Position numbers and translations under genes: made by a program. The notes beneath the pieces were generated by a model, which worked only from the letters and a program-made list of their open reading frames with translations, did not search any database and was not told where the DNA came from. Of a stretch of DNA of 64,000 nt, positions 41,944-44,364 are shown piece after piece. Position 1 is the first letter of the stretch; the number at the start of each line of letters is the position of its first letter. This stretch comes from Burkholderiales bacterium (GTDB lineage Bacteria > Pseudomonadota > Gammaproteobacteria > Burkholderiales > SG8-41), in assembly GCA_019751125.1 (NCBI GenBank), contig JAIENU010000037.1:17586-81585 (forward strand), read 5' to 3'.

Positions 41944-43068
41944 ATGCGCAAACTGCTGCAACTCATTGGTATGGTTCTGCTGGTCCAGGGCGCATCGGCG
42001 CTGGCGCAGGCTACCGTCAAATCCGAAAAACACGAATTCCGCGTCGTTACGCTGGTCCGCGGCCTGCAGAATCCCTGGTCGCTCGCCTTCCTGCCCGATG
42101 GCCGTGCGCTGGTGACCGAACGCGAAGGCCGGCTGCGCATCATCGGCAAGGACTGGCGCCTTGATCCGCGGCCGGTTGAAGGCCTGCCCGAAATCGTCGC
42201 CAGCGGCCAGGGCGGCCTGCTCGACGTGGTTCTGCACCCGCAGTACGAGAAAAACGGCTGGATCTACTGGTCATACAACGCGCCGGGGGCGGGCGGTTGG
42301 GGCACCGCGATGGCGCGCGGCAAGCTGCAGGGTGGCCGCATGACTGATGTGCAGGTGCTGTTCAGCATGGAGCCCAAGACCCGAGCCGGCCACCACTTCG
42401 GCGGGCGCATCGTGTTCGACCACAAGGGCTTCGTTTATCTGACCCTCGGCGACCGCGGCGACATGCCGCGCGCACAGCGCATGGATGACCACGCCGGCTC
42501 GGTGATCCGCCTGCACGACGACGGCCGCGTGCCCGCCGACAATCCCTTTGTGATGCAGGCCGGCGCGAAGCCGGAGAAATTCACCCTCGGCAACCGCAAT
42601 ATGCAGGGCGCAGCACTGAATCCGCGCACTGGCGAGCTGTGGACCCACGAACACGGCCCGCAGGGCGGCGACGAAATCAACGTGATGCGCGCCGGCCGCA
42701 ACTACGGCTGGCCGGTGATCAGCTACGGCGTCAACTACGGCATCGGCACGAAGATTGGTGAGGGCACCGCCAAGCCCGGCATGGAGCAGCCGCTGCTGGT
42801 GTGGACACCGTCCATCGCGCCTTCGGGCATGGCCTTCTATAACAGTGATGCCTTTCCCAACTGGAAGGGCAATCTTTTTGTTGGTGCGCTACGTGACGAG
42901 ATGCTGGTGCGGCTGGAACTGGAGGGTGACAAGGTGGTGCGGCAGGAGCGACTGATCAAGGGTGTCATCGGGCGTATCCGCGATGCGCGCGTGGGGCGGG
43001 ATGGCTTGATCTATCTGCTCACGGATGAGCGGGAGGGGGTGGTGGTGAGGTTGGAGGCGGTCAAGTAA
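41944..43068 (+). CDS. PQQ-dependent soluble sugar (aldose) dehydrogenase, YliI/Asd-like
   Basis: Signal peptide. Beta-propeller motifs: PWSLAFLPDGRALVTEREGRLRI, GQGGLLDVVLHP, HFGGRIVFD, GNRNMQG, THEHGPQGGDEIN, NYGWP. Confidence 0.8.
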   Translation: MRKLLQLIGMVLLVQGASALAQATVKSEKHEFRVVTLVRGLQNPWSLAFLPDGRALVTEREGRLRIIGKDWRLDPRPVEGLPEIVASGQGGLLDVVLHPQYEKNGWIYWSYNAPGAGGWGTAMARGKLQGGRMTDVQVLFSMEPKTRAGHHFGGRIVFDHKGFVYLTLGDRGDMPRAQRMDDHAGSVIRLHDDGRVPADNPFVMQAGAKPEKFTLGNRNMQGAALNPRTGELWTHEHGPQGGDEINVMRAGRNYGWPVISYGVNYGIGTKIGEGTAKPGMEQPLLVWTPSIAPSGMAFYNSDAFPNWKGNLFVGALRDEMLVRLELEGDKVVRQERLIKGVIGRIRDARVGRDGLIYLLTDEREGVVVRLEAVK

Positions 43069-43116
43069 ATTTTGATTTGGCGCGTTACTTCTAAAATGAG
43101 TTGTTAGGGGGGGCTT

Positions 43117-43599
43117 ATGGCTAGGAAACCTACGTTTTTTAGTTTCCATTATGCAAATGACGTCATGCGCGTTCAGCAAATTCGAAATATAGGTGCGCTT
43201 GATGGGAATGAACCGGTTTCCCCAAATGATTGGGAGCAAGTTAAACGTGGTGGGGATGCATCAGTTAAGAGGTGGATCGATGAAAATATGAAGTACAAGC
43301 AATGCGTAATTGTTCTCGTTGGTGCTGAAACCGCTGACAGGCCGTGGGTTCGTTATGAAATTGAAAAGGCGTGGAATGATGGTAAACCCATCTTTGGAAT
43401 TCATATTCATAACTTAAAATGCCCTCGGACAGGGACTTGCATTAAGGGTGCTAATCCCTTTGATAGATTTAATTTTCAAAATGGGAAAAAGCTGTCTTCC
43501 TTTGTTAAATGTTATGACCCAAACCCACTCTATGCTTATCATGACATTGCCGACAACATCGAGTTTTGGGTTGAGCAGGCGATTGCTCAAAGGAGATGA
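43117..43599 (+). CDS. Stand-alone TIR-like domain protein, ThsB family (DUF1863/MTH538-like)
   Basis: 160 aa. N-terminal beta-strand motif TFFSFHYANDV. Central region CVIVLVGAETADRPWVRYEIEKA (Glu81). Then KPIFGIHIHNL. This pattern matches my recollection of Pfam PF08937. The gene is low-GC, and a G-rich RBS precedes the ATG. Confidence 0.75.
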   Translation: MARKPTFFSFHYANDVMRVQQIRNIGALDGNEPVSPNDWEQVKRGGDASVKRWIDENMKYKQCVIVLVGAETADRPWVRYEIEKAWNDGKPIFGIHIHNLKCPRTGTCIKGANPFDRFNFQNGKKLSSFVKCYDPNPLYAYHDIADNIEFWVEQAIAQRR

Positions 43600-43600
43600 G

Positions 43601-44047
43601 ATGAATTCTGAGGAAATATTAAATTTAAATCCTGAATCTGCTTCTATTCAAACGCATTTGTCGATTATTCAGAATGTAATTCAGCGTATGGCTGATAACA
43701 GTTCCTCCTGTAAGGCTTGGTGTGTAACTTTGGTATCTGCGGTTTTAGTTATAGTTGCGGATAAGGGGCGGCCGGAATACGCATGGATTGCATTGTTGCC
43801 GACTTTTGTATTTTCGGCGCTCGATGCTTATTATCTTGCGCTTGAAAAAGGGTTTAGAAATTCTTATAACGATTTTATATACAGGTTGCACAGTAAGACG
43901 CTGAGAGCGATGGATCTTTATTCGATTACCCCCAAAGGTTGTCTCGCAAAACTTCAATTTGATTCATTGAAGTCATTTTCAATTTGGGGGTTTTACGTTT
44001 CTCTAATTGTTCTGATCGCGATAACAAAAACAATTGCTATTAAATAG
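43601..44047 (+). CDS. Small three-TM membrane protein, operon partner of the TIR-like gene (candidate effector, possibly SLATT-like)
   Basis: The ATG lies 2 nt after the upstream TGA, with AAGGAG at 43590-43595. The protein is 148 aa. It has a cytoplasmic N-terminal helix (IQTHLSIIQNVIQRMADN). Predicted TMs are at about residues 38-53, 60-80 and 125-145. Same low-GC composition. No catalytic or nucleotide-binding motif recognised. Confidence 0.7.
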   Translation: MNSEEILNLNPESASIQTHLSIIQNVIQRMADNSSSCKAWCVTLVSAVLVIVADKGRPEYAWIALLPTFVFSALDAYYLALEKGFRNSYNDFIYRLHSKTLRAMDLYSITPKGCLAKLQFDSLKSFSIWGFYVSLIVLIAITKTIAIK

Positions 44048-44091
44048 AGGTGGATAAGCGAGTTGGACATACGGTTGCGATGTAAGATTTT

Positions 44092-44364
44092 TTGATGTCG
44101 AATAATTTTCCTGACTCCTGCTATCTGATCACCGCTGTCGATCTGGTGTCCCGACTCACCGACTTCACTCTGATCGACCTCCGCCCCGCCGAAGACTTTG
44201 CCGTCGGCCACATTCCCGGCAGCATCCACGTCGATATCTACGGCGTGAGCCTCAACGATTCATCCGAAGCACCGTTCAATTCCTTTCTGGCAATCTTCCG
44301 TGTGCTCTCCGGCTCACGCCGCTTAAGCCCACCGGTAACCCTTTTGCCGCTGGCCGTAAGGTAG
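44092..44364 (+). pseudogene. Probable truncated rhodanese-domain gene remnant
   Basis: The first ~60 aa look like a rhodanese N-terminal half (ITAVDLVSRLTDFTLIDLRPAEDFAVGHIPGSIHVD). The ORF ends after 90 aa with no active-site Cys loop. Confidence 0.35.

Follow-up and report, generated by a model that had tools for sequence, protein, structure and literature searches.

The window (the whole stretch of DNA that was analysed, 64,000 nucleotides) contains a pair of abutting genes, of which the first encodes a TIR-domain protein and the second a predicted membrane protein of 148 aa. The questions raised by this locus are to which family the smaller protein belongs and how a protein of this size, lacking a recognisable sensor, could read a nucleotide signal. 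In a first-pass annotation of the same DNA, the 148-aa protein had been proposed to be a SLATT effector or, failing that, a member of an orphan family. Thoeris types V-XI have been defined, among which type V consists of ThsB and of ThsF, a three-transmembrane (TM) protein annotated as DUF2270 (bioRxiv 10.64898/2025.12.03.692087). Because of homology, architecture and genomic context, the pair in the window is read here as a ThsB-ThsF type V Thoeris system in which ThsF would be the membrane effector, with a probability of about 0.8. The locus is a proteobacterial addition to a system type reported in December 2025, and PADLOC had already listed the pair as a candidate; what is new is a proteobacterial clade of ThsF, a map of its conserved residues, and the finding that standard annotation models miss the family.

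The islet and its two genes

The two genes occupy an islet of about 1 kb and low GC content (0.38-0.46 inside vs 0.62-0.68 in the flanks), described as tiny and horizontally acquired, which lies between a glucose/sorbosone dehydrogenase (GSDH) gene and a truncated rhodanese ORF. Neither an integrase and convincing flanking direct repeats nor a consensus promoter or terminator were found for the islet, and no empty site was found either, since all metagenomic contigs that share the flanking genes carry an identical islet. The features of the locus are as follows.

43069..44091, no strand assigned: two-gene islet, between the GSDH gene (41944-43068) and the truncated rhodanese ORF (44092-44364)
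43117..43599, + strand: thsB, 160-aa TIR-domain signal synthase, as assigned from Pfam ThsB_TIR, PADLOC ThsB1 and PDC-M50B
43590..43595, + strand: Shine-Dalgarno sequence AAGGAG for thsF, within the 3' end of thsB, read from the sequence
43601..44047, + strand: thsF-family gene, 148-aa predicted three-TM effector, stop codon included; assigned from ThsF homology and PDC-M50A

On the downstream side, the 90-aa rhodanese ORF (44092-44364, + strand) matches the 102-position Pfam model over positions 6-48 alone (2e-07) and looks like a truncated remnant without the active-site half; an 89-aa rhodanese product is called identically in all sister contigs.

The product of thsB matches Pfam PF08937 (ThsB_TIR) at 4e-27, PADLOC ThsB1 at 5.8e-73 and PDC-M50B at 4.6e-62. 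It carries a W77-V78-x-x-E81-I82 motif in common with the type I ThsB of B. cereus MSX-D12, to whose TIR domain it is 39% identical, and W77, V78, E81 and I82 are invariant in an alignment with type I, III and V ThsB TIRs. From published work on ThsB, we take E81 to be the catalytic glutamate. The TIR domain is thus assigned to the ThsB class, with the catalytic-glutamate motif kept. Among published systems, the window TIR is 60-63% identical to TIRs labelled 'DUF2270 - Type V' (Table S1, Yirmiya et al.).

The second ORF runs from an ATG at 43601 to a TAG at 44045-44047 and encodes 148 aa, and its translation contains the peptides quoted in the first-pass annotation. The AAGGAG sequence ends 5 nt upstream of this ATG, and a gap of 1 nt separates the latter from the TGA stop codon of thsB (43597-43599). 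Homologues of the protein form 3931 clusters at 50% identity (profile search, E <= 0.001) and 1539 clusters at 90% identity. In comparison with 70 distinct homologous ORFs, nonsynonymous differences amount to 0.15-0.25 per site while the synonymous ones are saturated at about 0.8. In view of the many homologue clusters, the low nonsynonymous change, the Shine-Dalgarno sequence and the abutting TIR stop, the ORF at 43601-44047 is a real gene under strong purifying selection. In one public contig (L101, 1997-2493) thsF is uncalled though the DNA equals that of the window, which reflects a gap in gene calling or indexing and no disruption.

Topology, conservation and family of the 148-aa protein

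By Kyte-Doolittle hydropathy (19-residue window, cut-off 1.6), three stretches of the protein and no others lie above the cut-off, namely residues 34-54, 63-81 and 122-148, in agreement with the earlier placement by hand of a soluble N-terminal part followed by TM1 (38-53), TM2 (60-80) and TM3 (125-145). The AlphaFold2 monomer, built on 29 homologues (mean pLDDT 86.8, pTM 0.77), contains helices at residues 14-55, 58-97, 103-107, 115-123 and 126-147. The first consists of an amphipathic cytoplasmic part that runs on into TM1, and the second, after a short turn, of TM2 prolonged into a cytoplasmic helix. The N-terminal amphipathic helix that had been suggested is borne out by this model together with a hydrophobic moment of 1.66 for residues 16-33, and so is the basic character of the loop after TM2, where 8 K/R vs 4 D/E are found in residues 81-124. 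From this excess and the positive-inside rule, a topology with the N-terminus in, the loop in and the C-terminus out is likely. The protein is therefore predicted to have the three TM helices, within about 140-150 aa, that characterize ThsF in length and topology. Its segments are as follows.

43640..43708, + strand: residues 14-36, predicted cytoplasmic amphipathic helix, with motif Q24-x-x-I27-x-R29-M30-A-x-N33-S34
43709..43765, + strand: predicted TM1, residues 37-55, Kyte-Doolittle peak 1.87
43778..43840, + strand: predicted TM2, residues 60-80, Kyte-Doolittle value 1.65, with P67 and the intramembrane motif L74-D75-x-x-Y78-L79
43841..43891, + strand: residues 81-97, predicted cytoplasmic continuation of the TM2 helix (58-97 in the AlphaFold2 model), with motif E82-K83-x-F85-R86-x-x-Y89
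43892..43972, + strand: residues 98-124, variable cytoplasmic loop with two short predicted helices (103-107 and 115-123 in the AlphaFold2 model)
43973..44041, + strand: predicted TM3, residues 125-147, Kyte-Doolittle values up to 1.91, starting with S125-F-S-x-W-G-F131-Y132

Conservation was measured in 107 diverse relatives (alignment A2). R29 never varies in the N-terminal helix, where Q24, I27, M30 and S34 each reach at least 93%; K38, placed with W40 at the start of TM1, is invariant too. In TM2 the values are 0.95 for P67, 0.96 for D75 and 0.99 for Y78. In the continuation of TM2 E82 is invariant, and K or R is found at position 83 in 0.87 and at position 86 in 0.88 of the relatives. TM3 reaches 0.95 at S125, 0.90 at F131 and 0.98 at Y132, and the mean top-residue frequency of the loop 98-124 is 0.30. 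The top-conserved residues of the family are Q24, I27, R29, M30, S34, K38, W40, P67, L74, D75, Y78, L79, E82, F85, R86, S125 and Y132. Conservation peaks in the cytoplasmic N-terminal helix, TM1 and the post-TM2 helix and is lowest in the periplasmic turn and the loop. The conserved charges comprise the basic R29, K38, K83 and R86, the acidic E82, and D75 inside TM2, and this pattern fits a functional, cytoplasmic, membrane-proximal ligand site.

With respect to family, the best reference is the validated ThsF of B. thuringiensis DAR 81934 (BtThsF), a 141-aa gene product (L016:3773-4198) encoded directly downstream of the DAR 81934 ThsB (BtThsB, P0271); the BtThsB sequence was taken from Table S1 and the identity of BtThsF from the gene order in Table S2 (Yirmiya et al.). 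The window protein is 40% identical to BtThsF over 73 aa by BLASTP (E = 1e-14), and the 107-sequence family profile aligns with it in hhalign at 99.45% (E = 5e-22, 124 columns). Within the BLASTP alignment, which spans window residues 19-90, most of the family-conserved residues are kept in BtThsF, the pairs (window/BtThsF) being R29/R21, K38/K30, P67/P60, D75/D68, E82/E75, K83/K76 and R86/R79; Y78 is replaced by F in BtThsF, and the alignment does not reach S125 and Y132. The 148-aa protein also matches PADLOC PDC-M50A (6.9e-31) and the uncharacterised family PHROG 19896 (3.6e-26). It is thus very probably a ThsF-family effector, and the fallback of an orphan family is superseded by these matches and by the homology to a validated ThsF. 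A "hypothetical protein" becomes in this way assignable as an immune effector, and a plausible but wrong SLATT call is corrected.

General-purpose resources are silent on this protein. Pfam and NCBIfam give no domain, so that, as far as known domains go, the earlier statement on the lack of a recognisable ligand-binding domain is correct. Foldseek of the AlphaFold2 monomer against PDB and BFVD returns nothing below E = 1, a profile search of PDB sequences no match at E <= 10, and a scan of viral contigs with the close-relative alignment no confirmed match. PF10028 (DUF2270) matches neither the window protein nor BtThsF at E <= 1, and 13 of the 107 relatives give weak, sub-threshold matches to it (best E = 9e-4). 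Since validated BtThsF also fails PF10028, the DUF2270 label gives no operational definition of membership, and current Pfam and NCBIfam models miss ThsF, the validated protein included. PF24838 ('8xMP, octameric membrane protein family') shows a weak, nearly full-length match to BtThsF (E = 0.012) and weakly matches 6 of the 107 relatives (best 0.0013), and a literature search on 8xMP found no paper; the similarity may point to a remote relationship with an oligomeric membrane family.

Association of ThsF with TIR genes

Relatives 56-77% identical to the window protein are encoded at 80 metagenomic loci, and at 70 of these a window-like TIR gene is adjacent, usually directly upstream and in four cases downstream; in most related loci the two genes abut, with gaps of few nt. 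Of the other ten, four end too soon upstream for a judgement and one lacks a readable upstream ORF; a TIR_2-class gene precedes ThsF at two, a TIR-fusion gene lies on the opposite strand at one, and at two no TIR was seen. In related loci ThsF is therefore almost always adjacent to a TIR gene, and it pairs with at least three TIR classes; this would be expected if ThsF receives a small, diffusible molecule made by TIR enzymes. ThsB also abuts ThsF in Pseudoalteromonas tunicata and Shewanella algae, where a second TIR gene lies upstream. In the former (L008, 4433-7609), an extra 335-aa TIR_2 protein precedes ThsB-ThsF, a phage integrase follows, and HP1_ORF34-like genes lie upstream, so that the locus looks like prophage-borne cargo with multiple TIRs. 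At two further loci (L053, 670-2287; L062, 1860-3347) a TIR_2-type and a ThsB-type TIR flank or precede one ThsF. Two-TIR loci of this kind echo the multi-ThsB organisation of other Thoeris types.

The ThsF family is very large and mobile, being carried by conjugative Klebsiella and Escherichia plasmids and Vibrio phage-like elements, and the pairing is found in a cyanobacterial MAG, in Klebsiella plasmids and in Vibrio phage-like elements as well. Matches were found in 132 plasmid records and 3 phage records. In those that were inspected, a conjugative Klebsiella plasmid, a plasmid of Vibrio chagasii and a 14-kb Vinavirales element of Vibrio, distant ThsF relatives have a TIR gene as neighbour. 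The records with plasmid relatives (about 35% identity) include 40 from Klebsiella and 36 from Escherichia, and 82 plasmids are predicted to be conjugative. In an IncF example (L103, NZ_CP024543.1 4066-5371) the ThsF-like gene precedes the TIR gene, beside an IS110 transposase. In three 14-kb Vinavirales (tectivirus-like) elements of Vibrio cyclitrophicus (L104, PQ189363.1 178-2635), an integrase, ThsB and a ThsF-like gene stand at the left end, and the Thoeris-like pair thus appears as cargo of a small phage-like element. In B. thuringiensis DAR 81934, an OLD-TOPRIM/AAA ATPase and a UvrD-type helicase adjoin the type V Thoeris genes (L016, 4454-6759); with this Gabija-like pair, the locus sits in a defence island.

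Proposed signal and gating, and comparison with known systems

The type V system of B. thuringiensis defends against phage; BtThsB by itself produces 3'cADPR, and does so only upon infection; 3'cADPR supplied from outside, unlike 2'cADPR or cADPR, impairs the growth of cells carrying the system; and Tad1, a 3'cADPR sponge, lowers type V defence (bioRxiv 10.64898/2025.12.03.692087). The signal is proposed to be perceived in positively charged pockets between ThsF protomers, as AlphaFold3 predicts a ThsF homo-heptamer (ipTM 0.78) in the form of a channel-like ring with positive inter-protomer pockets (bioRxiv 10.64898/2025.12.03.692087). In Bacillus sp. 1NLA3E, a second validated type V system, added 3'cADPR is non-toxic, and the only type V system assayed from the Gammaproteobacteria, that of Vibrio cholerae ZWU0020, did not confer defence on E. 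coli (bioRxiv 10.64898/2025.12.03.692087).

For the locus in the window the following sequence of events is proposed. ThsB would be idle until phage infection and, once activated by the phage, would convert NAD+ into a cyclic ADP-ribose isomer, most likely 3'cADPR by analogy. ThsF would reside in the inner membrane, with its N-terminus and the 81-124 loop in the cytoplasm, probably as a homo-oligomeric ring. Basic pockets between protomers, formed by the N-terminal helix (R29), K38 at the membrane interface and the post-TM2 helix (E82, K83, R86), would take up the signal, whose binding would switch the ring to a membrane-disrupting state, by which the infected cell and the phage are stopped. 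The conserved R29, K38, K83 and R86 are consistent with the basic inter-protomer pockets of the predicted ring, and the conserved membrane-proximal charges offer an answer in principle to how a protein without a sensor reads a signal. How a 148-aa membrane protein of this kind reads a nucleotide signal has been answered so far by structure prediction alone, and for the window locus signal identity, oligomeric state, binding site and a pore or depolarisation outcome are all what we infer. Signal-gated oligomeric membrane disruption by ThsF appears probable, and for 3'cADPR as the signal at this locus the odds are judged a little better than even. The conserved residue set gives direct targets for mutagenesis.

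Since the 1NLA3E system is not triggered by 3'cADPR, the signal may differ within type V, and the alternative that survives best is a type V-like system with another signal (another isomer or an ADPR conjugate) to which ThsF is tuned, which we regard as unlikely though worth keeping in mind. TIRs from a single Thoeris cluster are combined with several types of effector (bioRxiv 10.64898/2025.12.03.692087), and the window TIR (160 aa, ThsB1-like) falls in a different TIR cluster from BtThsB (252 aa), which tblastn with the window TIR does not find. The clade to which the window pair belongs is mainly gammaproteobacterial, with a cyanobacterial MAG and a Desulfobacterium MAG in addition, and comprises >1500 clusters at 90% identity; there is perhaps one chance in several that its combination of a 160-aa ThsB1-type TIR and a ThsF of about 148 aa uses a signal or a gating unlike that of the Bacillus type system. 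In that case ThsF would be the smallest receptor of the cADPR family known, a pore with a ligand site made up solely of membrane-proximal helices (R29, K38, E82, K83, R86) and with the conserved intramembrane D75 in its conduction or gating path. Against a different signal, the window TIR resembles type I ThsB (by its identity to the MSX-D12 TIR and its PADLOC ThsB1 match), whose product is 3'cADPR (bioRxiv 10.64898/2025.12.03.692087), and the window ThsF and BtThsF have the basic residues of the proposed binding site in common.

An improbable alternative is that the TIR protein is itself the killing module, by depletion of NAD+, and the small membrane protein a sensor, an anchor or a regulator. 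Many bacterial TIRs are indeed NADase effectors (bioRxiv 10.64898/2025.12.03.692087), the toxicity test with 3'cADPR in that preprint used cells with the whole system and not ThsF alone, and ThsF shows no recognisable ligand-binding domain. On the other hand, the window TIR belongs to ThsB1, a class with a signalling role in type I Thoeris; in validated type V the production of 3'cADPR on infection by the TIR protein alone, the toxicity of external 3'cADPR only where the system is present and the effect of Tad1 point to a flow from signal to effector; and pairing of ThsF with at least three TIR classes is what a common small-molecule receiver would show.

Least probable is a SLATT-domain effector that, as in type VII Thoeris or CBASS, would oligomerise once a nucleotide signal is bound, because the points in its favour, i.e., a similar general architecture (cytoplasmic helix, TM hairpin, further helix), the existence of TIR-SLATT operons (type VII Thoeris), a sub-threshold SLATT_6 match in only 1 of the 107 relatives (E = 0.0077) and a viral SLATT protein at noise level in Foldseek (E = 3.1, TM 0.41), are outweighed by the lack of any match of the 148-aa protein to Pfam SLATT_1 to SLATT_6 (or fungal) at E <= 1, by an hhalign probability of 0.3% between the family profile and a genuine type VII SLATT effector, to which BLASTP finds nothing either, and by the positive, full-length homology to ThsF instead. 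The comparator was a 294-aa ThsH (L018:2094-2978; SLATT_3 1.5e-42, SLATT_1 1.4e-32), found as the neighbour of a TIR 90% identical to the ThsB of the Pseudohongiella type VII system. The 148-aa protein thus resembles a SLATT effector in outline, yet by sequence comparison it is placed outside that family. Of the earlier interpretation, the kind of system was right, in that a TIR enzyme that signals in a conflict system is paired with a membrane-acting effector, and the family was wrong.

The ThsB-ThsF reading can finally be set beside the known systems. Type II Thoeris (2TM + Macro) and the TM effectors of CBASS and Pycsar resemble ThsF in small-molecule-activated membrane disruption that leads to abortive infection, but they have a sensor domain (Macro, SAVED or cyclic-nucleotide-binding) or belong to unrelated TM families, whereas ThsF has no sensor domain. 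Type VII Thoeris (ThsB + ThsH) also combines a TIR synthase with a membrane effector without a separate sensor domain, and activation of ThsH is likewise predicted to proceed via basic inter-protomer pockets; by contrast, ThsH has no detectable homology to the window ThsF, is about 290 aa long with two SLATT domains, and responds to canonical cADPR, unlike the signal proposed here. Both window genes match the PDC-M50 entry of PADLOC-DB v2 (A, the membrane protein; B, the TIR), an unpublished candidate with no function or mechanism attached, of which a literature search found no mention. The closest system is type V Thoeris itself. The window differs from that of B. thuringiensis in its 160-aa ThsB1-type ThsB instead of a 252-aa TIR and in its host, a GC-rich Gram-negative bacterium; it shares with type V the two-gene thsB-thsF operon, a three-TM effector of about 140-150 aa, the full-length hhalign homology, relatives of its TIR listed in Table S1, and the common motifs QxVIxRMAxNS, KxW, a proline in TM2, LDxx(Y/F)(Y/F)L and EKxFRxxY.
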